From positions 1 through 32,166 of the forward strand of contig JAQXHT010000051.1 in the NCBI GenBank assembly GCA_029007415.1: a DNA stretch of 32,166 nucleotides, given 5' to 3'. The translations under genes and the position numbers were made by a program. The stretch's first letter is position 1. The number at the start of each line of letters is the position of its first letter. Positions 5,472-32,166 of this stretch are shown here, piece by piece. A model generated the notes under the pieces. The model was not told the DNA's origin and made no database searches. It saw only the letters and a program-made list of their open reading frames with translations. The stretch is from a bacterium (GTDB taxonomy: Bacteria; Bacillota_I; Bacilli_A; RF39; UBA660).

Positions 5472-8367
5472 CAGTAACACCTATTTCTTCTATCTGACTA
5501 ACAATCATTTGAATTTGGTCGTATCGCTTTTCTACTCTTCCCACTATTTTATAAAGATGACCTTTCTTTAATTCTATATTATTCCAAATTTTCGGAAAGA
5601 AGGTATAATCGACACTTCCTGTTTCGTCACTACAACTAGCAAAAGCCATTTTATCACCTTTTTTAGTAGTTATTTCTTTAATACTTTCTACTAATACAAC
5701 TGTTGTTACTAATTTATCAAAGTATTTATTTAGTTGTTCTAAAGAAATACAGTTAGTAACTGTTCCTTTATAACTAGTCGCAGGATGATTACTTATATAA
5801 AGACCAAATAAGTCTTTTTCTTGTTCTAGCAATAAATAGTTATCATATTCATCTACTACTTCAATATCTGGTATTAAGACTAAACTAGGGTCTAAATCTT
5901 TAACTAGTTCGCCATAATTATATAAAGAGTCTAGGTTCATTATTAAAGTTCGTTTGTTATATTTAAAGTTTCTAAAACAATCAGCTAGTATTAGAGTTTC
6001 GAGTTGCTTTTTGGTTATTCCTTCTCCTACTAGTTCTCTAATCGCTTCAAAGATATCAGTAAATTTTTCTTTTCTTGCTTTAATAACTGTTCTTGAAACA
6101 CTAACTCCAATTCCTTTAATGGTAGAAAAGGGAAATACTATTTTACCAGCAATAACTTTAAAGACATCTTCACTCTCATTAATATCTGGTTTTACCACCT
6201 CGATTTTAACACTTCTAACTTCTCTTATATATTCGTTTAGTTTACTTTCTACACCGATAACATTTGTTAATAAGTTGGTATAAAAATAAAGTGAGTAATG
6301 AACTTTTAAATAAGCCATTTTATAAGCAACCATTGAGTAGGCTACCGCATGACTTCTATTAAAACCATAACCAGCAAATTTTAGAATTTGAGCAAATAAT
6401 TCTTTCGAAATAGTTTCATTCTTTCCTAGTTCTTTAGCTTTACGTAAAAATCTTTCTTCTTCTTTTTCTAAGACATCTTTTTTCTTTTTGCTTATCGCCC
6501 TTCTTAATATATCTGCTTCTCCTAAAGAGTAACCAGCATAAGAACTAACTGTTTGCATTACTTGTTCCTGATAAATCATAATACCATACGTTTTCTTTAG
6601 AATGGGCTCTAGACAGTTATCTAAGTAGGTTACTGTCTCCTTGCCTTCTTTTCTTTTAATATAAGTGTCTATATTAGCAGCAGGTCCTGGTCTAAATAAT
6701 GCTATAGCAGCAACAATATCTTCAAAATTAGCGGGTTTTAAATCTCTTAAGAATTTACGCATTCCACTAGATTCAAACTGAAAGATACCTGTTGTGAAGG
6801 CTTTACTAAATAATTGATAACAAGCTGAATCATTAAGAGTAATATCATAGAATGGAATCTTTATTCCTTGAAACTTTTCAATATCTTTTAAGATATTCAT
6901 AATTAAAGTAAGATTTTTAATTCCTAGAAAATCCATCTTTAAAAGTCCTAGTTCTTCTAGATAATTCATTGAATAACTAGTTAAGTACATACCGTCACTC
7001 ATAGTAAGAGGTAATACTTCATCGAGTTCTTTCTGACACATTACTATTCCAGCAGCATGCGTTCCAATCTGTCTTGGAAAGCCTTCTAATCTACTTGCTA
7101 TTAAATAGACACTTCTAAGTCCTTCATCACTATCTATTTCACTTTTGAATAACTTATCATTTTGATAATAATAGTTAAGTGTTTCTTTACTCATCGGCGG
7201 AATAAAAGAGTTTAAATGATCTATTTTATAGTTCGGTATTTTTAAAACTCTTGCTACATCTCTTAAGACTTGTTTAGCAGAAAGGGTTGAGAAAGTAACT
7301 ATTCCAGCAACTTTCTTTTCGCCATACTTTTCTTTGACATAATTAATAACATCTTCACGATACATATCAGGTAAATCCGTATCAATATCAGGCATACTAA
7401 CTCGTTCTGGATTTAAGAATCGTTCAAATAGTAAATCATATTTTAAAGGATCTATTTCAGTTATTCCTAAAGAGTAAGCTACTAAGCTACCAGCAGCACT
7501 TCCCCTACCTGGTCCTACTAAGATATTATTTTTCTTAGCATATAATATGAAGTCATATACTACTAAAAAGTAGTTAGAAAAGCCCATTTTTTTAATAATA
7601 GATAATTCATAGATTAATCTATCGAAATAATTTTTTAAGACATTACCTTTTAGTCGTTTAGTTAAACCTTTAATAGCTAATTCTTTTAAATAAGTGTCAG
7701 CATCTAAGTTATTAGGGCAGTTATAAATAGGTAGTAACAATTCTGCCTTAGGAAAAGTAATATTACATTTATTAATTATTTCTAAGCAAGTTTTATCACT
7801 AACAAATTCTTTATCAGTTAAGTCATAGTGCATTTCATCATAGATACTTTTACCATCACGTATTAAATATAAATATTTTAAATAGTCAGCTTCTTGTTTT
7901 TCCTTATATAAGCATTCTCTTAAGAATACAACTTTTTCTGTTAATTCTAAGGCTTTAGTTCTTTCTTCTTCCGTTTTATATCCTAGGTATATTGAAGGCG
8001 TAGTTATTTCTTTTAATAATTCTCTACTCTCATAGGGAAGACAGATAATAAGTTCTTCTTGATAATTATTTAAATCAGCAAGTTCTACTCTACTAGTATT
8101 AGCAAGAGTTGATAATTTAATCAAATGCAAATAACCAGTATAACTCTTAGCATAACAAAGAACTATTCTATCTGCTATCTTTAATTCTAGACCAATAACA
8201 GGTTTTATTCCCTTTAAATTACATTTCTTAATAAACTCCATTGTTCCATACATAGTATTATCAGTAATAACAGCATAGTCATTGCCTCTAGCAGCATTTA
8301 ATTCAATAATATCATCTACTGATAAAAGGCTAGATAACAAGGAATAATAACTTTTAACATATAACAT
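5461..8367 (-). CDS. dnaE: DNA polymerase III alpha subunit
   Basis: GPGRGSAAGSLVAY, FERFLNPER, PDIDTD, HAAG, GLLKMDFLG, C-terminal OB fold. Confidence 0.97.
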   Translation of the reverse strand: MLYVKSYYSLLSSLLSVDDIIELNAARGNDYAVITDNTMYGTMEFIKKCNLKGIKPVIGLELKIADRIVLCYAKSYTGYLHLIKLSTLANTSRVELADLNNYQEELIICLPYESRELLKEITTPSIYLGYKTEEERTKALELTEKVVFLRECLYKEKQEADYLKYLYLIRDGKSIYDEMHYDLTDKEFVSDKTCLEIINKCNITFPKAELLLPIYNCPNNLDADTYLKELAIKGLTKRLKGNVLKNYFDRLIYELSIIKKMGFSNYFLVVYDFILYAKKNNILVGPGRGSAAGSLVAYSLGITEIDPLKYDLLFERFLNPERVSMPDIDTDLPDMYREDVINYVKEKYGEKKVAGIVTFSTLSAKQVLRDVARVLKIPNYKIDHLNSFIPPMSKETLNYYYQNDKLFKSEIDSDEGLRSVYLIASRLEGFPRQIGTHAAGIVMCQKELDEVLPLTMSDGMYLTSYSMNYLEELGLLKMDFLGIKNLTLIMNILKDIEKFQGIKIPFYDITLNDSACYQLFSKAFTTGIFQFESSGMRKFLRDLKPANFEDIVAAIALFRPGPAANIDTYIKRKEGKETVTYLDNCLEPILKKTYGIMIYQEQVMQTVSSYAGYSLGEADILRRAISKKKKDVLEKEEERFLRKAKELGKNETISKELFAQILKFAGYGFNRSHAVAYSMVAYKMAYLKVHYSLYFYTNLLTNVIGVESKLNEYIREVRSVKIEVVKPDINESEDVFKVIAGKIVFPFSTIKGIGVSVSRTVIKARKEKFTDIFEAIRELVGEGITKKQLETLILADCFRNFKYNKRTLIMNLDSLYNYGELVKDLDPSLVLIPDIEVVDEYDNYLLLEQEKDLFGLYISNHPATSYKGTVTNCISLEQLNKYFDKLVTTVVLVESIKEITTKKGDKMAFASCSDETGSVDYTFFPKIWNNIELKKGHLYKIVGRVEKRYDQIQMIVSQIEEIGVTDER

Positions 8368-12766: not shown

Positions 12767-13309
12767 TGTAAATTTAAAAGCCTTTAGTCCTATTTCATTA
12801 GCAGCAATAATATTTTTTTCTTTATCATCAAAAAATACAGTTTCTTCTTTATTTAAATTATATTTATCAAGTATTAGGTTATAAATGTCATAATCTGGTT
12901 TTAGTAAATGTTCTTGATAGGAATATACTCCTCCACTAAATATGTCATCTAAATTAATAACGCTATTTATATAATTGAAACTGTCTTCTGTTATATTTGT
13001 TAATAAAAACAATCTATAACCTTTCTTTTTTAGACTTTTTATGTATTCAAAATTATTTTTCATCAATGGATATGATTTACTTAAATTATCTTTTTCTAAA
13101 ATATATTTAATAATCGTAAATTCTTTATTATCTTTAAAACCATTTATATAATCCTGAACACTTATTTCTCCTAATAAACACTTTTTGAATGTTTTACCAT
13201 AAGTTATTTTATAGATATAGTCACAATTTTTACCTAATAACTTTTCAGTATTTTCTTTGCTATCATCAAAAAGTATACCGCCAATATCTAATATAATATT
13301 CTTAACCAT
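12737..13309 (-). CDS. HAD family phosphatase
   Basis: LDIGGIL, LLTN, KPD, FFDD motifs. Confidence 0.9.
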   Translation of the reverse strand: MVKNIILDIGGILFDDSKENTEKLLGKNCDYIYKITYGKTFKKCLLGEISVQDYINGFKDNKEFTIIKYILEKDNLSKSYPLMKNNFEYIKSLKKKGYRLFLLTNITEDSFNYINSVINLDDIFSGGVYSYQEHLLKPDYDIYNLILDKYNLNKEETVFFDDKEKNIIAANEIGLKAFKFTSIADISRNI

Positions 13310-25629: not shown

Positions 25630-26169
25630 TTATTTTGTTTTATTAAGAATTAGAATAAACTTATCGCCATATTTTCTTTCTTTATATATGGTATAATATT
25701 CACCATAAACAAATTTGTCTTTACTACTACTTTCTAAAATAACTAAACCATCAGTATTTAACAAATCATTCTTTTCTATTAGAATAAGAGCTTCTTTAAT
25801 ATAATCTGTTTTATACGGTGGATCAATAAAGATTAAATCATATTTATTAGTTGTTTCCTTCAAGAATTTACGGAAATCAATTAAATAGACAGTGTCTAAC
25901 TTTTCCCCTAAATTAGTTAAATTATTCTTGATAGTTTTAATAGCTATTTTGTTTTCATCAATGAAGGTACAACTCTTTCCTCCTTCACTTAATGCTTCTA
26001 AACCTAGATTACCACTACCTGCAAAAAGGTCAAGACAATTACTATCTTTAATATAATTTTGAATCATGGCAAATAAAGATTCTTTCACCCTATCCATAGT
26101 AGGTCTTGTTCCTTCTATATCATAACCAATAATATTTCTTCCTTTATATTTACCACTAATTATTTTCAT
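25630..26169 (-). CDS. rsmD: 16S rRNA (guanine(966)-N2)-methyltransferase
   Basis: TRPTMDRVKESLF, LDLFAGSG, DPPY. Confidence 0.95.
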   Translation of the reverse strand: MKIISGKYKGRNIIGYDIEGTRPTMDRVKESLFAMIQNYIKDSNCLDLFAGSGNLGLEALSEGGKSCTFIDENKIAIKTIKNNLTNLGEKLDTVYLIDFRKFLKETTNKYDLIFIDPPYKTDYIKEALILIEKNDLLNTDGLVILESSSKDKFVYGEYYTIYKERKYGDKFILILNKTK

Positions 26170-26422
26170 CTTTAATCTCTCCTAAGTATTTATTACAAGA
26201 TAATATCAAAAAGTTAAGTCGATTTTCTAGCATTTTATATTTTTTGTATTTCTCATCATTATATATTTCTTTTCTAATCGTTTCATTATAAGTATTATGA
26301 TACTCATCTATCTTAGCAATTAGTTCTTTATCTTCATAAATACTAGCAAGACTTTTCTTAATTTCAAACTTTATCTCCGAATTATCAATCATATCAACTA
26401 GTTCATAATAAGTTCCAATCAT
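26156..26422 (-). CDS. Small helical protein, possibly YlbF/YmcA-like
   Basis: Overlaps rsmD start; Y..YK.LEN.LN pattern; family uncertain. Confidence 0.5.
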   Translation of the reverse strand: MIGTYYELVDMIDNSEIKFEIKKSLASIYEDKELIAKIDEYHNTYNETIRKEIYNDEKYKKYKMLENRLNFLILSCNKYLGEIKDENN

Positions 26423-26472
26423 CTGTTAACCACTTCCGTCATTATTATAACAAATACTTAATCAAGAGAAAA

Positions 26473-27600
26473 CTATCTTTTCATTTTTAAATCATTACGA
26501 TAGCAGAAACTACCGCTATCAGCACTTTTTAGAAAGCCATTATAACTTGCTAAGGTTTGTTCTAACTTTTCTGGTTCATGTTTTCTAACGTATTTTACTC
26601 GTTTTTTTATTTTTCGTTTAGTCTTGCCATTTATTAGCATTAATAGTCTTTTATTCTTTAAAACAAAGCGATACCCTAGAAAACAAAAGCCATGATGAAT
26701 TTCTACTATCTGTGTCTTTCTATTAAGTTTTAGTTTTACTTCATCTAATTTCTTTTCTATTTCTTTTAAACAGTATTTAAGATATTCTCTATCTTCATGA
26801 AATAAAATGAAATCATCCATATATCTAACGTAGCATTTTATTCTTAGCTTTTCTTTAATAAAATGATCTAAGTCATTTAAATAATAAACTGCTAATATTT
26901 GACTAGTCATATTACCTATTGGTAGTCCTTTTCCTTTTTGATAAAGTGGTATTGATTCAAGAGACTTAATATGACTTTCGCAATCTCTAATACCTAGTTT
27001 TTTAACTCTTTCAATTTCACTTTCTACTGATTTTTTAATTTCTTCATTAACATAATTATAATTAGTACTAATAATTATTTCTTTTACCATATTAAATATA
27101 CGTTCATCTTTAATAAGCTTAGTTAGCTTATCAAGAAGTATTTCTTGGTCTATTGAATAAAAGTATTTTGATATATCACATTTAAGTACATATATTTTAT
27201 CATGATTTTCCTTCATTTTATTAATGTACTTTTTCACATAATATATTCCTTTACTTGAACCCATAAGTGGTCTTGTAGCTACATTCATTGGTAGTAAAAG
27301 TGGATCAATTAAAGGAAAAAGAAAATAAGTACTAACTAAGTGATTAACTATTTTATCTGGCATTGTTTCACTCATAATCAAACGATATTTCGGCTCTTTA
27401 ATTATAAAGATATGATATTTTTGATGATGATAAGCTTCCTCTTTTAAGGTATTGTAAATTGACATAATATTGCAAGAAAAAAATAGTTCAAATATGAAAA
27501 TCTTATCCTTGTGTTTAGTATTTTTGCGAACGGTATTATAAACATTAGTAAGATTTTCTATCGTAACTACTTCTTCATAACTAAGTGCTTTGCTTTTCAC
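26473..27600 (-). CDS. DGR reverse transcriptase
   Basis: KCDISKYF, GLPIGNMTSQ (DGR-type GxxxSQ), YVRYMDDF, FLGY; 375 aa with no maturase or endonuclease domain. Confidence 0.95.
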   Translation of the reverse strand: MKSKALSYEEVVTIENLTNVYNTVRKNTKHKDKIFIFELFFSCNIMSIYNTLKEEAYHHQKYHIFIIKEPKYRLIMSETMPDKIVNHLVSTYFLFPLIDPLLLPMNVATRPLMGSSKGIYYVKKYINKMKENHDKIYVLKCDISKYFYSIDQEILLDKLTKLIKDERIFNMVKEIIISTNYNYVNEEIKKSVESEIERVKKLGIRDCESHIKSLESIPLYQKGKGLPIGNMTSQILAVYYLNDLDHFIKEKLRIKCYVRYMDDFILFHEDREYLKYCLKEIEKKLDEVKLKLNRKTQIVEIHHGFCFLGYRFVLKNKRLLMLINGKTKRKIKKRVKYVRKHEPEKLEQTLASYNGFLKSADSGSFCYRNDLKMKR

Positions 27601-27937
27601 TCCTAATCACCCCATAAGAAATTTTTCTGATTTCAATTAAAAAATTACTAACTGACTCGTACTTCTTATGGCTAATAATTTTTTTCTTATAACTAACATG
27701 CATATAATAATCGAGCATAGAAATTTGAATAACTAGTGCTTTTAGATATTTAAGTTTAATTCTATTAGTATCCTCGATTCGGTAAGAAAAAATATTTTCA
27801 ATTATCAAATACATAGTTTTTTCGATATTTTGTTTTAATATCACTTCATTTTTAGGATAGTTAATTAATTGTTTGTTAATATAATCAATCGTTTTTTCAC
27901 TATTAGATAAAAGTCTAAAACTATCATTGGAGTCCAT
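27581..27937 (-). CDS. avd: DGR accessory variability determinant (four-helix bundle)
   Basis: 118-aa basic helical protein with YPKNE..L and KIISHKKYE..EI.K..G pattern; overlaps RT start by 20 nt. Confidence 0.85.
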   Translation of the reverse strand: MDSNDSFRLLSNSEKTIDYINKQLINYPKNEVILKQNIEKTMYLIIENIFSYRIEDTNRIKLKYLKALVIQISMLDYYMHVSYKKKIISHKKYESVSNFLIEIRKISYGVIRSEKQST

Positions 27938-28331
27938 CGATAAACTCCTTAATTTTATTATAATTTTCAGAACTATTAGAAATTAACATTTCAATTCTTT
28001 TCATTAATAATTCATGGGAACATTTGCTGTAATAACTTTTCTGAGCAATAGCTGATATATCTTTATATAGATTATCATCACTCATATAACTAGTTATTTC
28101 TTCATTTTCTACGATGTAAAAAGAAATATTCTTATCACGTAAATTTTTTGTTACTTTAGTAAGTGCTGCTACTGGGAATCCTAATTTTTCATTATTAATT
28201 TGGTATGAAAAAAGATAATTCATAGTTATAGCATCAAATCCAAAAGTAACATAAAAACTGCCTACTTTTAAGAGAACTATTTCTTCTTGATGTTGTTTTT
28301 TCAACTCTTCATACTTTTCTTTTACTTTCAT
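27924..28331 (-). CDS. Stand-alone MutS domain I-like DGR accessory protein
   Basis: Y..LK......LLKVGSFYVTFGFDA and GFP motifs; start at ATG 28331 after aggag, giving 135 aa. Confidence 0.8.
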   Translation of the reverse strand: MKVKEKYEELKKQHQEEIVLLKVGSFYVTFGFDAITMNYLFSYQINNEKLGFPVAALTKVTKNLRDKNISFYIVENEEITSYMSDDNLYKDISAIAQKSYYSKCSHELLMKRIEMLISNSSENYNKIKEFIDGLQ

Positions 28332-28348
28332 TTTACTCCTATAATAGT

Positions 28349-28734
28349 TATGCCAAAGATTAATCTTGTTTCCAATCTTTAGATTATGAGTTATATCATT
28401 ACTTCCTCTAGTTACCAACCTTAATCAATAACATACGGTTAGATTAGCAATAATTATACTAATTCGTAGTAGGAATCTGGACGGGCCCCGAAGGAATTCG
28501 TGACGTTGTTCCAATGATTCAGACTGCCTGAAGGATTCACGTTCCAAACGTTCGCATTAGAGTTGTTAGACTCAAAGTTAGACGGAGACAGCGAAGTTCT
28601 AAGCTCTGAATGCAACACAAACCTGAAAGGTCCGTTAGTAGATTAACCTCACTTACTATATTTTTTCAATGTATCAATATTTTCTCAAATAATAATATTA
28701 GCTAAGAAAAGTATACATTATTTTTTCTGGCATA
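28349..28734 (-). ncRNA. DGR template cassette 1 (TR1 28477-28592)
   Basis: TR reads LSPSNFESNNSNANVWNVNPSGSLNHWNNVTNSFGARP; bounded by tatgcca/tggcata. Confidence 0.88.
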
Positions 28735-29363
28735 TAGTTTTTAAAGTAGATTTTAGTTAAATTGCAAGAATTACTAATTTACCTATATATGATGTTAGTT
28801 TTATTTTATAGATAAACGGATACTTACATGTCATATGACAGATATTTTTAAGTAAAACTATGCATGACACAAATTATTTTTCACTACTAGCATATTAGTA
28901 AATATGCCTTACTAGCTCCTATGGTATTTAATTATCTTTAGTAGTTAAATTTAACTGTAATAAACAACTATATATATTATTATCAGTCTTTTTCATAATC
29001 CGTACGAGGTGTCATTACCCCTGTTTCTTTCCGTTAGTATCTATTAGTGTCAAATAATAGATATATTACTCCGCTATAAGTTTTGTATTTTGAGTTATTT
29101 TCTTAATTTATATTAGTATTAAAATAATACAAAAATAAATTTCTTTCTATATCTTTTAATAATAGTAAAAAGTATTTTAAAGATTATAGATAAAGTCATT
29201 ACTCAAAACAAAATTACCATATTTTACCATAGATTTCCCCTCATCATCCATAATAATGGTAACATATCGTTTGAGAATTTTCAATATTTATTCTCAAGTA
29301 TGAATATATTTATACAAGAAAAAAAGCAAAAACTTTTTTAATAATTTTTACTTTTGTTATTGT

Positions 29364-29742
29364 TATGCCAAAGATTAATCTTGTTTCCAATCTTACAGAT
29401 TATGAGTTGGCTCATTACTTCCTCTAGTTATTAACCTTAATCAATAACATACGGTTAGATTAGCAATGATTATACTAATTTGTAGTAGGAATCTGGACGG
29501 GCCCCGAAGGAATTCGTGACGTTGTTTCCGTTATTCAAGCTGCCTGAAGGATTCACGTTCCAAACATTTGCATTAGAGTTGTTTGAATTGAAGTTAGACG
29601 GAGACAGCAAACTTCTAAAAACTAATACTAGAAGGAAAAAACCGTTATTAGACTAACCTTATTTATATTCTTTTAATGTACCAATATTTTCTTGAATAGT
29701 TAACACCAGTCAAAAAAAGTATACATCATATTTCTTGGCATA
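29364..29742 (-). ncRNA. DGR template cassette 2 (TR2 29493-29608)
   Basis: TR reads LSPSNFNSNNSNANVWNVNPSGSLNNGNNVTNSFGARP; bounded by tatgccaa/ttggcata. Confidence 0.88.
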
Positions 29743-29774
29743 GTATTTAAAAACTACTTTGTCTTAATTATGGT

Positions 29775-30156
29775 TATGCCAAAGATTAATCTTGTTTCCA
29801 ATCTTACAGATTATGAGTTATCTCATTACTTCCTCTAGTTACCAACCTTAATCAATAACATACGGTTTAGATTAGCAATAATTGTACTAACTTGTAGTAG
29901 GAATCTGGACGGGCCCCGAAGGAATTCGTGACGTTATTCCAGTCAATCAGACCGCCCGAAGGAAGGACGTTCCAAACGTTCGCATTAGAGTTGTTTGAAT
30001 TGAAGTTAGACGGAGACAGCAAACTTCTAAAAACTAATGCTAGAAAAAGTCTAAAACCGTTATTAGATTAACCTTTATCATTTTCTTTTAATGTACCAAT
30101 ATTTTTTTAAATAATTAGTTTAGCTAAAAAACGTATACATTATTTTTTTTGGCATA
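29775..30156 (-). ncRNA. DGR template cassette 3 (TR3 29905-30020), cognate template of the visible VR
   Basis: TR reads LSPSNFNSNNSNANVWNVLPSGGLIDWNNVTNSFGARP; 15 mismatches to VR, all at TR adenines. Confidence 0.95.
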
Positions 30157-30232
30157 ACATAGGAAAAATAATACTCCTTTATTTTTTTAAATGCAAGCGA
30201 TTTTATATTTTAAAAATAAACAATTATAGCTT

Positions 30233-30591
30233 GTGTCAAAGATTAATCTTGTTTCCAATCTTACAGATTATGAGTTAGCTCATTACTTCCTCTAGTTAGT
30301 AACCTTAATCAATAACATACGGTTTAGATTAGCAATGATTATACTAATTTGTAGTAGGAATCTGGACGGGCCCCGAAGGAATTTGTTACATCACGATTAT
30401 TCAGGCTGCCTGAAGAAAACACGCTCCAAATATCTATTATAGAATAATTAGAATTGAAATAAAACGGAGACAGCAATATCTTTAATGCTTAGAACCTCGC
30501 ATTAGATTAACCTTGTTATTATTGCAATGTACAAATATTTTCTTAGCAATAATTATTAACTGAGAAAAGTATACATTATTTTTTCTGACAC
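30233..30591 (-). ncRNA. DGR template cassette 4 (TR4 30362-30474)
   Basis: TR reads LSPFYFNSNYSIIDIWSVFSSGSLNNRDVTNSFGARP (one codon shorter); bounded by gtgtca/tgacac. Confidence 0.82.
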
Positions 30592-30627
30592 TTTTGATAG
30601 AAAAATTATATTTTTATTTAAAATTAA

Positions 30628-31011
30628 TATGCCAAAGATTAATCTTGTTTCCAATCTTTTAGATTATGAGTTAGCTCATTACTTCCTCTAGTTATTAACC
30701 TTAATCAATAACATACGGTTTAGATTAGCAATGATTATACTAATTTGTAGTAGGAATCTGGACGGGCCCCGAAGGAATTCTCGACACTACCCCAATGATT
30801 CAACATGCCTGAAGGATTCACGTTCCAAACATTCGCACTAGAGTTATTTGAATTGAAGTTAGACGGAGACAGCGAACTTCTAAAACTAATGCTAGAATGG
30901 ATCAAAACCGCTATTAGATTAACCTTATATTATTTTTTATTATCAATGCACCAATATTCTTACAAATAGTATTATTAGTTATAAGATGTATACATTATTT
31001 TTTCTGGCATA
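30628..31011 (-). ncRNA. DGR template cassette 5 (TR5 30758-30873)
   Basis: TR reads LSPSNFNSNNSSANVWNVNPSGMLNHWGSVENSFGARP; bounded by tatgcca/tggcata. Confidence 0.88.
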
Positions 31012-31036
31012 AAATAATTTTGATATTTATATAGTA

Positions 31037-31399
31037 GTGCCAAAGATTAATCTTGTTTCCAATCTTACAGATTATGAGTTAGCTCATTACTTCCTCTAGT
31101 TACCAACCTTAATCAATAACATACGGTTAGATTAGCAATGATTATACTAATTTGTAGTAGGAATCTGGACGGGCCCCGAAGGAATTATTGACGTTATTCC
31201 AGTCAAGACTGCCTGAAGGCTGCACCGTCCAAACGTTAGCGTGAGAATTACCTGAGTTGAATTTAGACGGAGACAGTGAAAAAGAAATCCAAGTGAGAGA
31301 ACCGTTTTTAGATTAACCTTTTCTTTATGTTCAATGTACCAATATTTTTTCTGAATAATTAATTTAATCAAAGAAAGTATACATTATTTTTTCTGGCAC
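31037..31399 (-). ncRNA. DGR template cassette 6 (TR6 31165-31277)
   Basis: TR reads LSPSKFNSGNSHANVWTVQPSGSLDWNNVNNSFGARP (one codon shorter); bounded by gtgcca/tggcac. Confidence 0.86.
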
Positions 31400-31441
31400 G
31401 TTTTAAGTAATATAAATTTTTTCAAATATATTTTATAGATG

Positions 31442-31810
31442 TATGCCAAAGATTAATCTTGTTTCCAATCTTTAGATTATGAGTTAACTCATTACTTCCT
31501 CTAGTTATCAACCTTAATCAATAACATACGGTTAGATTAGCAATGATTATACTAATTTGTAGTAGGAATCTGGACGGGCCCCGAAGGAATTTGCAACATA
31601 CGTCCAATCATTCAGACTGCCCGAAGGATTCACGTTCCAAACGTTCGACTGTGAGTTGTTTGAATCGAAGTTAGACGGAGACAGCGAAAGGACAAACAAA
31701 CAGAAAGAGTCCGTTAGTAGATTAACCTTATTTATATTTATTTAATGCATCAATATTCTTACAAATAATTATATTAGTTGCAAGATGTATACATTACCTT
31801 TTCTGGCATA
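31442..31810 (-). ncRNA. DGR template cassette 7 (TR7 31570-31685)
   Basis: TR reads LSPSNFDSNNSQSNVWNVNPSGSLNDWTYVANSFGARP; bounded by tatgcca/tggcata. Confidence 0.88.
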
Positions 31811-31816
31811 AATTAA

Positions 31817-31842
31817 AGGCAAAATGATGAGTCATTTTGCCT
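31817..31842 (-). terminator. Perfect hairpin after target gene (terminator and/or DGR homing hairpin)
   Basis: aggcaaaatga-tgag-tcattttgcct: 11-bp stem, 4-nt loop, 5 nt past the stop codon. Confidence 0.7.
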
Positions 31843-31847
31843 AGAAA

Positions 31848-32165
31848 CTAACTTATTGAAACAACATATGGATTTAAAGCAGTTCCATCTCCCTTGGTTA
31901 TCAGTGTATCAGCCTTTAGGTTGATAACTGGACGGGCCCCGAAGGAAGACGAGACGTAAATCCAGTCAAGCAGACCGCCCGAAGGAAGGACGTACCAAAC
32001 GTACGCAAGAGAGTAGTATGAAGAGAAGTAAGACGGAGACAGCGTCCAGAAATATTGGCCATTATATAGATAATAATTACTATTTGCTGTATTATATACT
32101 CCTCCAGCCATTGCTACTTCATCGGCTGTGATAAGTGAAACTGGATAGTCTAGTTTGGCACTTGC
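31848..32165 (-). CDS. DGR target protein, C-terminal part (probable C-type lectin-fold variable domain); 5' end outside window
   Basis: Frame open to window edge: ASAKLDYPVSLITADEVAMAGG...FWTLSP[VR]GARPVINL; WxxS...GxRP framing is typical of CLec DGR targets. Confidence 0.9.
   Translation of the reverse strand, partial: ASAKLDYPVSLITADEVAMAGGVYNTANSNYYLYNGQYFWTLSPSYFSSYYSLAYVWYVLPSGGLLDWIYVSSSFGARPVINLKADTLITKGDGTALNPYVVSIS
31928..32043 (-). repeat. DGR variable repeat (VR)
   Basis: 116 bp colinear with TR3; encodes LSPSYFSSYYSLAYVWYVLPSGGLLDWIYVSSSFGARP. Confidence 0.95.
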
Positions 32166-32166
32166 A

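Follow-up and report, generated by a model that had tools for sequence, protein, structure and literature searches.

In the DGR of Bordetella phage BPP-1, arranged as avd-TR-spacer-brt with mtd as the target, the TR and the VR differ specifically at adenines, the target gene has its VR at the 3′ end, the two repeats share a GC-rich 3′ boundary, and the spacer RNA, a conserved segment located 3′ of the TR, recruits RT-Avd and primes cDNA synthesis. The reverse transcriptases (RTs) of DGRs carry a YxDD box and an (I/L/V)GxxxSQ motif, and the variable residues are displayed on a C-type-lectin-like (or Ig-like) fold. In DGRs of architecture D the accessory gene MSL, coding for a small MutS-domain protein, is found together with avd, according to the description in PMC5758913. 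The locus analyzed here resembles both kinds: it has the adenine-specific differences, the VR position, the GC-rich boundary, a conserved segment on the 3′ side of the TR and a putative Avd-like protein in common with BPP-1, and this putative avd plus a small MutS-like gene beside the RT in common with the architecture D MSL-DGRs of Legionella and Bacteroides, as these are described in PMC5758913 and bioRxiv 10.1101/2024.11.15.621889.

The window, i.e. the whole analyzed stretch of 32,166 nt, is a contig from a 125-contig MAG of 77% completeness (G000), in which the VR-bearing genes are located at contig ends. The gene order at the locus is target/VR, seven cassettes of ~400 bp, MutS-like gene, Avd-like gene and RT. 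We consider it likely that this is a chromosomal MSL-type DGR of a small-genome gut bacterium of the Bacilli, in which a single template has been expanded into seven complete tandem cassettes, any of which could in principle be used. The features of the locus are the following.

26473..27600, minus strand: reverse transcriptase, 375 aa (Pfam RVT_1, E 1.5e-18; IGNMTSQ and YMDD in the translation)
27581..27937, minus strand: Avd-like accessory protein, 118 aa (Pfam bAvd and NCBIfam DivGenRetAVD, both sub-cut-off)
27924..28331, minus strand: MutS-domain-I-like (MSL) accessory protein (Pfam MutS_I, E 5.2e-8)
28347..28734, minus strand: cassette 1 (3′ element 28347-28476, TR1 28477-28592, upstream part up to 28734)
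28735..29345, no strand: AT-rich 611-bp non-repeat stretch between cassettes 1 and 2, outside all repeat families
29346..29745, minus strand: cassette 2 (TR2 29493-29608; 33 adenines, 13 AAY codons)
29758..30157, minus strand: cassette 3 (TR3 29905-30020; donor of the adjacent VR)
30215..30590, minus strand: cassette 4 (TR4 30362-30474, 113 nt; 5 AAY codons; the most divergent TR)
30611..31012, minus strand: cassette 5 (TR5 30758-30873)
31018..31401, minus strand: cassette 6 (TR6 31165-31277, 113 nt)
31423..31811, minus strand: cassette 7 (TR7 31570-31685)
31817..31842, minus strand: terminator-like hairpin directly past the target-gene stop (11-pair stem, then a T-rich tail; a consensus match only)
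31848..32166, minus strand: 3′ end of the target gene, 105 codons, truncated by the contig end (VR 31928-32043)
31928..31940, minus strand: GC-rich IMH-like 3′ boundary GGGGCCCGTCCAG, common to the VR and all seven TRs

The RT gene lies beside the TR array, together with the Avd-like and MSL genes, and we take the IGNMTSQ and YMDD motifs of the RT to be marks of a DGR RT. The Avd-like protein scored 32 bits with bAvd (E 1.9e-7, cut-off 40) and 38 bits with DivGenRetAVD (E 1.4e-9, cut-off 80), while the MutS_I match of the MSL protein lies above its cut-off and, with the Avd-like gene adjacent, identifies the locus as an MSL-type DGR. The MSL gene has a probable ATG start at 28331 with GGAG, and its frame is open up to 28418. 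No ORF of at least 50 aa was found in 28735..29345 among the listed open reading frames, and the cassettes of a related genome, G045, have a similar-sized gap at the same position.

The open frame of the target passes through the VR to the stop at 31848-31850, with the VR ending 26 codons before the stop, and the VRs on contigs C25, C77 and C88 of the same genome are likewise placed in the 3′ part of an open frame. Full-length relatives of the target are 620-625 aa long with a hydrophobic segment at the N terminus. The target gave no Pfam match and no PDB sequence match, and its AlphaFold model is of middling confidence (mean pLDDT 68.7); none of 75 Foldseek matches to the model had E ≤ 0.001, and where the match was to a lectin domain its probability was at most 0.09. 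The one Atlas lead was DUF6273, present on 11-18% of cluster members.

An earlier note on this DNA had proposed that the VR derives from TR3 by changes at adenines only. It is clear from the ungapped 116-nt minus-strand alignment of the VR (32043..31928) with TR3 (30020..29905) that this is the case: all 15 mismatches fall on TR3 adenines, 15 of the 25 adenines being changed, and the chance of 15 mismatches all falling on 25 of 116 sites is 1.2e-12. Such adenine-only differences are what defines a TR-VR pair of a DGR. When all TRs were compared pairwise with the VR, the remaining six showed 6-16 non-A differences, namely TR1 (27 mismatches, 8 non-A), TR2 (29, 6 non-A), TR5 (32, 14 non-A) and TR7 (26, 10 non-A), together with TR4 (38 differences, 16 non-A plus 3 gap columns) and TR6 (33 differences, 12 non-A plus 3 gap columns), leaving TR3 as the sole A-only donor. 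The differing length of TR4 and TR6 (113 nt against 116) was borne out as well, and so was the example of the Val after WN, which is GTC in TR3 and the VR following TGGAAC/TGGTAC and GTG in TR1, TR2, TR5 and TR7.

TR3 is the third cassette counted from the RT and the fifth counted from the target. For the VR on C88, too, no other TR is an A-only donor, and 13 of 13 differences there are at TR3 adenines. Since TR3 alone fits both VRs in this manner, a mid-array cassette has acted as template, in agreement with the claim in the note of a functional cassette in the middle of the array. The lack of non-A drift, which gives no date, is the one sign that the DGR may have been active recently, as the note proposed. 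When contigs assembled from four public runs were compared, 20 of 24 listed variant places inside the VR were TR3-adenine sites, a count to which paralogous VRs can contribute as they can map too. None of the contigs of the four runs on 31400-32166 spans that whole stretch, and the VR is covered by short contigs that are indistinguishable from paralogs; because the paralogous genes share flanks, this VR variation cannot be assigned to this locus. Runs X19 to X24 had low shares of the sampled sequence words, and a single metatranscriptome run had a small share.

More than one TR has been used in this genome. The VR on C77 fits TR1 best, with 12 of 14 differences at A and 2 non-A, whereas even the best-fitting TR leaves 5 non-A differences for the VR on C25, and the VR on C118 is cut off and incomplete. 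For TR2, TR4, TR6 and TR7 no matching VR was found in this 77%-complete assembly. At least two TRs with A-only or near-A-only VRs were found in G000, as well as in its congener G046, and judged from these alignments at least two of the seven cassettes have served in the rewriting of surface-protein genes. A search for mosaic VRs with two parents reduced the non-A counts by just 0-4 and gave no convincing chimera. The shared 3′ end GGGGCCCGTCCAG is unaltered in all 8 copies within the window and in 4 other VRs of the same genome, and downstream from it the VRs differ from the TRs; the boundary may have a role in homing.

All seven TRs of the window are stop-free in the VR frame and differ in length by whole codons only. 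The 19 TRs pooled from four genomes are likewise all stop-free, with lengths of 113 or 116 nt, and so are 11 of 11 TRs in G069, a genome with the array on a 446-kb contig. The 130-nt 3′ element shows 94% mean identity among the seven cassettes with 115 of 132 columns invariant, compared to 80% for the TRs and 54% for the upstream part, and it is retained in single-TR relatives with an RT that is just 48-49% identical. Compensatory changes were seen in 7 of 23 predicted pairs of the element, a number reached in 0 of 500 shuffles, and slid controls gave 0-3. These comparisons suggest that the 3′ element is a counterpart of the Bordetella phage spacer RNA that would recruit RT-Avd and prime cDNA synthesis. 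An Rfam search of 26000-32166 gave no match, and a promoter scan found 23 sites against 23.2 ± 4.8 in shuffles, which is not above chance, and no promoter is claimed.

Arrays recur in relatives: 13 of 80 RT-related loci have 2-8 cassettes within the flanks examined, and the largest array elsewhere has 11 (G069, with 2 VRs found). This bears on the idea that the seven cassettes are one working template with decaying duplicates, so that TR3, or TR3 and TR1, would be functional and the others neutral relics of tandem duplication. Fitting VRs for TR3 and TR1 only, the strong divergence of TR4 with its 5 AAY codons, and the G069 array, where the adjacent VR has 12 of 12 differences at A to the second cassette alone and 10 of 11 cassettes are without a fitting VR, are what such decay could leave behind. 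Decay sits poorly with the intact frames described above, with length changes by whole codons, and with a 3′ element far better conserved than the TRs or the upstream part. In G046, with 8 cassettes and 12 VRs, 9 of the 12 VRs can be matched to a TR with no more than 2 non-A differences, and these are distributed over 5 of the 8 TRs, three VRs being perfectly A-only, each to a different TR; the VRs of G045 fit TR5 of the source genome with 2-3 non-A differences. We therefore regard decay as improbable, and the argument of the note against a single real TR accompanied by debris is supported by the use of a second TR, the intact TRs, the conserved 3′ elements and the VRs of relatives that fit several TRs. 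Far less credible still is an assembly artefact, in which strain variants of a single cassette were joined by the metagenome assembler. A 125-contig MAG with its VR-bearing genes at contig ends invites that suspicion, which is met by the repetition in G045 of the order of cassettes 1-3 and of the gap past cassette 1, by a metagenome contig (L150) collinear with the window over 5.5 kb at 95% identity, by a cassette junction that recurs among contigs from 4 runs belonging to 4 studies, by arrays in the interior of long contigs elsewhere, for example the 446-kb contig of G069, and by the unique spacers between cassettes. We give the artefact hardly any weight.

It could also be imagined that every TR serves a VR or target gene of its own, with no template switching at a given VR. 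Numbers of TRs and VRs are unmatched, with 11 TRs to 2 VRs in G069 and several VRs per TR in G046, even though for most VRs one TR is clearly the best fit, and the template length (113 or 116 nt) is always equal in the VR and its best TR. The boundaries are all identical, and the same VR flanks occur with different TR types: in G046 identical 40-nt downstream flanks are present on two VRs fitting different TRs, showing no address in the flank. The metagenome contigs L148 and L149 have an identical TR7 and are 99.2% identical across the 242 nt between VR and TR7, and yet the neighboring VR differs: that of L148 shows 12 substitutions, all at A, plus a 7-nt gap to a G046 TR, and that of L149, 113 nt long, differs from another G046 TR at 11 places, 9 of them at A. 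The same target-gene end thus carries three template types across G000, L148 and L149, which makes a fixed pairing of TR and VR rather unlikely. In L148 and L149 an MSL-like sequence directly follows TR7 with no array there, and no donor of their VRs is in view. The hairpin contigs L145, L152, L154 and L157, whose VRs differ from all compared TRs at 10 or more non-A or gap positions, were set aside as other species or paralogs, and 8 of 15 metagenome contigs had no TR- or VR-like copy within the stretch examined.

Returning to the expanded array of usable templates, each cassette would supply a TR together with the conserved structured 130-nt 3′ element. If each cassette is transcribed and cDNA synthesis is primed from the 3′ element, one RT/Avd/MSL set would reverse-transcribe whichever cassette RNA binds, misincorporating opposite adenines, and the cDNA would replace the VR at the 3′ end of one among several paralogous surface-protein genes. 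The VR next to the array carries a TR3 copy at present. Because the 5′ and 3′ boundaries are identical in all TRs and VRs, every cassette should in principle be able to rewrite every VR, and the choice of template may be free. An array of cassettes would therefore add a choice of framework to adenine mutagenesis, including the fixed residues, the mutable codons and a length of 37 or 38 codons.

A more tentative idea, which we think possible but less likely than not, is that the array itself is rewritable, so that mutagenized cDNA (or VR DNA) would sometimes be written into a TR cassette and earlier, perhaps selected, variants would be stored there as heritable new templates. Adenine-poor, VR-like cassettes are present in other arrays (14 adenines against 29 in G069), and among the TRs 26 of 29 consensus-A columns vary compared to 37 of 87 other columns. 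Cassette 4 of L150 has kept the TR4 flanks around a TR1-type body, with 11 of 13 differences at TR1 adenines. A TR-to-TR pair within a single array with A-only differences was searched for in ten arrays or TR sets, and none was clean. If the idea is true, diversification would gain a further level above adenine mutagenesis and the array would serve as a sort of memory, its content and length changing from strain to strain.

With a single TR only the codons with template adenines are mutable and all else is frozen. A template array would lift this limit, as a change of template could exchange the fixed residues, alter which codons are mutable and even change the length of the loop. Since arrays of up to 11 cassettes recur in many gut Bacilli, the arrangement appears to be a strategy favored by selection, by which a large family of surface proteins is varied in the gut. 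It offers a natural model for multiplexed DGR engineering and makes two questions testable: the competition of several template RNAs for one RT-Avd complex, and the nature of what bars cDNA from homing into the TR.

Compared with BPP-1, which has one TR, the locus has seven complete TR-plus-3′-element cassettes, an MSL gene, a chromosomal location, several dispersed target genes and a target without a Pfam match. The architecture D MSL-DGRs are described with one TR each, and no cassette array is mentioned, in the parts of PMC5758913 and bioRxiv 10.1101/2024.11.15.621889 that deal with them. Dispersed target genes served in trans by one element are known from the DGRs of Treponema denticola and Trichodesmium (PMC4143802), where a single template serves all targets. 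Reported DGRs with at least two TRs are alike in that one RT serves more than one TR; in the portions of the reports that concern them they appear as counts or pairs only, whereas here there are 7-11 tandem cassettes each with its own 3′ element, TRs can outnumber VRs, and there is evidence for different templates at one VR locus. No description of tandem TR-cassette arrays was found in the full-text literature as far as it was accessible, where surveys count multi-TR DGRs and supplementary tables may list such loci. In outline the locus is also similar to the silent-cassette systems Neisseria pilS/pilE and Borrelia vls, where silent alternative versions of a variable segment are arrayed next to the expressed surface-protein gene and replace that segment in it. 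These systems use RecA-type gene conversion, whereas RNA and error-prone reverse transcription would act here, and the locus is not one of them.

The window is one entire contig (C51) of the host genome G000, an assembly of 1.26 Mb in 125 contigs with 28% G+C and an estimated completeness of 77%, and all relevant features of the locus lie on the minus strand in the following order.

Minus strand, 3' end of the target gene, cut by the contig end, with the variable repeat (VR) at 32043..31928
Minus strand, terminator-like hairpin
Minus strand, seven cassettes of approximately 400 bp, each with a template repeat (TR1 to TR7, numbered from the RT side); TR3 at 30020..29905
Minus strand, MutS-domain-I-like (MSL) gene
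Minus strand, Avd-like gene
Minus strand, reverse transcriptase (RT) gene

The RT translation carries IGNMTSQ and YMDD, and the architecture is that of the MSL-type diversity-generating retroelements (DGRs) as outlined in PMC5758913. The flanking genes, encoding a Cons_hypoth95-family methyltransferase, a Bax1-I-family protein, Ham1 and a SNF2 helicase, look chromosomal. Source organisms of the RT-related loci are recorded as uncultured gut Bacilli, and the public runs with the window sequence, counting only those with half or more of the sampled words (18 runs, 8 studies), are pig-gut or gut metagenomes. An AT-rich non-repeat stretch of 611 bp (28735-29345) parts cassette 1 from cassette 2, while the other cassettes abut; a similar-sized gap is present at the same place in the related genome G045.

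The earlier note had claimed that the VR derives from TR3 by adenine-only changes, and every checkable detail of this claim proved correct. TR3 and the VR align without gaps over 116 nt with 15 differences, all of which fall on TR3 adenines (25 in total; P = 1.2e-12). Each of the remaining six TRs differs from the VR at 26-38 positions, 6-16 of these being non-adenine substitutions, and TR4 and TR6 are 113 nt long. An exact 20-mer at the repeat end is present in 8 copies in the window.

The shared boundary motif was also found on four further contigs of G000; on each it sits within the 3' end of a paralogous gene, in most cases close to where the contig stops. The VR on contig C88 is best matched by TR3, with 13 of 13 differences at adenines, and the VR on C77 by TR1, with 12 of 14 at adenines; the VR on C25 fits TR3 poorly (18 differences, 5 non-adenine) and that on C118 is truncated where the contig stops. 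Non-cognate TR-VR comparisons in the same genome give 6-18 non-adenine differences. Judged by these adenine-only or nearly adenine-only matches, TR3 at the least has served as template in G000, and TR1 very probably has too. The further reading that a mid-array cassette is used also holds, TR3 being an adenine-only match to both the adjacent VR and the one on C88, as does the reading that the array is not one real TR plus debris. No VR fitting TR2, TR4, TR6 or TR7 was found in the 77% complete assembly. A second DGR is located outside the window on contig C67 (11295-13306), with an RT 42% identical to that of the window; in its repeat pair (12801-12908 and 13199-13306) 18 of 19 mismatches fall, on the plus strand, at T residues of the first copy, which places the template on the strand opposite the RT gene.

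The three parts of a cassette have mean pairwise identities of 54% (upstream part), 80% (TR) and 94% (a 130-nt 3' element immediately after the TR). In the 3' element 115 of 132 columns are invariant, and it also follows the single TR in relatives with an RT only 48-49% identical. A 9-pair hairpin is part of its consensus fold, and compensatory changes were found in 7 of 23 pairs, a level reached by none of 500 shuffles, with 0-3 in slid controls; Rfam holds no family for it. In the Bordetella phage element the RT-Avd complex is recruited by a spacer RNA, and since the 3' element is like this RNA in position and conservation, we infer that it may function in the same way. Stop codons in the VR frame are absent from all seven window TRs and from all 19 TRs pooled from four genomes; these TRs differ in length by just one codon and carry 5-13 AAY codons each.

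RT relatives are present in 26 of 41 sampled genomes, G000 included, and a cassette query run against the whole genus matched 17 of its 53 genomes. The classical layout, a single TR and an adjacent VR with 15-17 adenine-only differences, is found in four congeners whose RTs are 72-77% identical. In G045 the first three cassettes are as in the window and in the same order, 83-99% identical to the query cassette, and the fourth is cut by the contig end; VRs of this genome show 2-3 non-adenine differences to window TR5, a cassette absent from the assembled part of its array. In G046 seven cassettes adjoin one target gene and one adjoins MSL-Avd-RT, and 9 of 12 VRs match a TR with at most two non-adenine differences, across five TRs. 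Three of its VRs are perfectly adenine-only, each to a different TR, and 113-nt VRs pair with 113-nt TRs. The closest relative by RT (95% identical; contig C14 of G024) has one assembled cassette, its TR at 5593-5709; the VR next to it (5991-6107) does not match this TR (33 differences, 16 non-adenine). Other templates may have been lost or not assembled. Several of the nine VRs of G024 bear frameworks typical of window TR3 or TR5.

Among 80 RT-related loci in a wider scan, 13 carry 2-8 cassettes within the fetched flanks. One of the 13, on a 446-kb contig of G069, has the order Avd-like ORF, RT, small ORF, target gene and 11 cassettes, all 11 TRs being stop-free, and a search of this genome found just two VRs. 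The adjacent VR is adenine-only to the second cassette (12 of 12) and differs from each of the remaining ten at 6-22 non-adenine or gap positions. In this array (G069:C1:124792-128713) two cassettes are mutually identical, and two have only 14 adenines, where most others have 26-29, and look VR-like, each still followed by the 3' element.

Scanning metagenome contigs for the hairpin 3' of the target gene yielded 15 contigs. Two of these, L148 and L149, have a TR7 identical to that of the window and 99.2% identity to it across the 242 nt between VR and TR7. The VR of L148 has 12 of 12 substitutions at adenines of a G046 TR, plus a 7-nt gap, and the 113-nt VR of L149 has 11 differences, 9 at adenines, to another G046 TR. 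MSL-like sequence, with no further cassettes, comes after TR7 in both contigs, so the donor cassettes, not seen in these contigs, must lie elsewhere, as in G046. Three lines of sequence evidence argue for interchangeable templates and against a one-to-one pairing of TRs with VRs: this pattern across samples, the boundaries, which are the same in all TRs and VRs, and the match of VRs with identical flanks to different TR types.

The cassettes themselves may also turn over. Metagenome contig L150 matches the window collinearly at 95% identity over 5.5 kb, a stretch that starts where TR7 ends and reaches past the RT, and five of the TR bodies in L150 are only 1-3 positions off TR6, TR5, TR3, TR2 and TR1. 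In the cassette with TR4 flanks the body is of TR1 type, and 11 of its 13 differences are at TR1 adenines; this suggests, as a point secondary to our main claim, that cassettes can be overwritten with mutagenised copies. Odd repeat lengths suggest indel errors in this contig; such errors would not be adenine-specific. No clean adenine-only TR-to-TR pair was found within any one array examined, and the excess of variable columns among TRs at adenines (26 of 29, against 37 of 87 elsewhere) could also reflect free evolution of variable codons. On the minus strand of L150 (5480-5560) the target gene 3' end joins a 3' element directly, with the last codons, hairpin and TR7 missing and the VR 56 nt upstream of the template-type element; this could be a route for a VR to become a template, in a contig that looks indel-prone.

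In four runs, drawn from four studies, contigs link TR7 to the target gene 3' end with 0-2 differences, and one cassette junction recurs in them; the VR is covered by short contigs alone, with 13-29 differences. In these contigs 20 of 24 listed variant places in the VR are TR3-adenine sites, but since paralogous genes share the VR flanks (upstream C51 and C77, 100%; downstream C51 and C118, 92.5%) the variation is compatible with diversification at the window locus and no proof of it. Full-length target relatives have 620-625 aa and an N-terminal hydrophobic segment, with no Pfam domain. The VR-bearing C-terminal domain of approximately 190 aa is a widespread unnamed repeat domain matched by 5477 representative clusters and often repeated within giant proteins, with 5-11 copies in P0121-P0124 (2129-4905 aa). 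Its fold was not established by model or fold search, and the Atlas gave only a weak DUF6273 lead.

Collectively, the window element is a DGR that carries a library of complete template cassettes, apparently interchangeable, an architecture widespread in gut Bacilli. A full-text literature search covering the main texts gave no tandem TR-cassette arrays, no DGRs with more TRs than VRs and no template switching at one VR. DGRs with several TRs do feature in surveys: of 271 DGRs with multiple VRs, 216 have a single TR and so 55 have more, a Stenotrophomonas element has two TRs (PMC6642488), and zeta crAss-like phages have three TR-VR pairs (PMC12386605).
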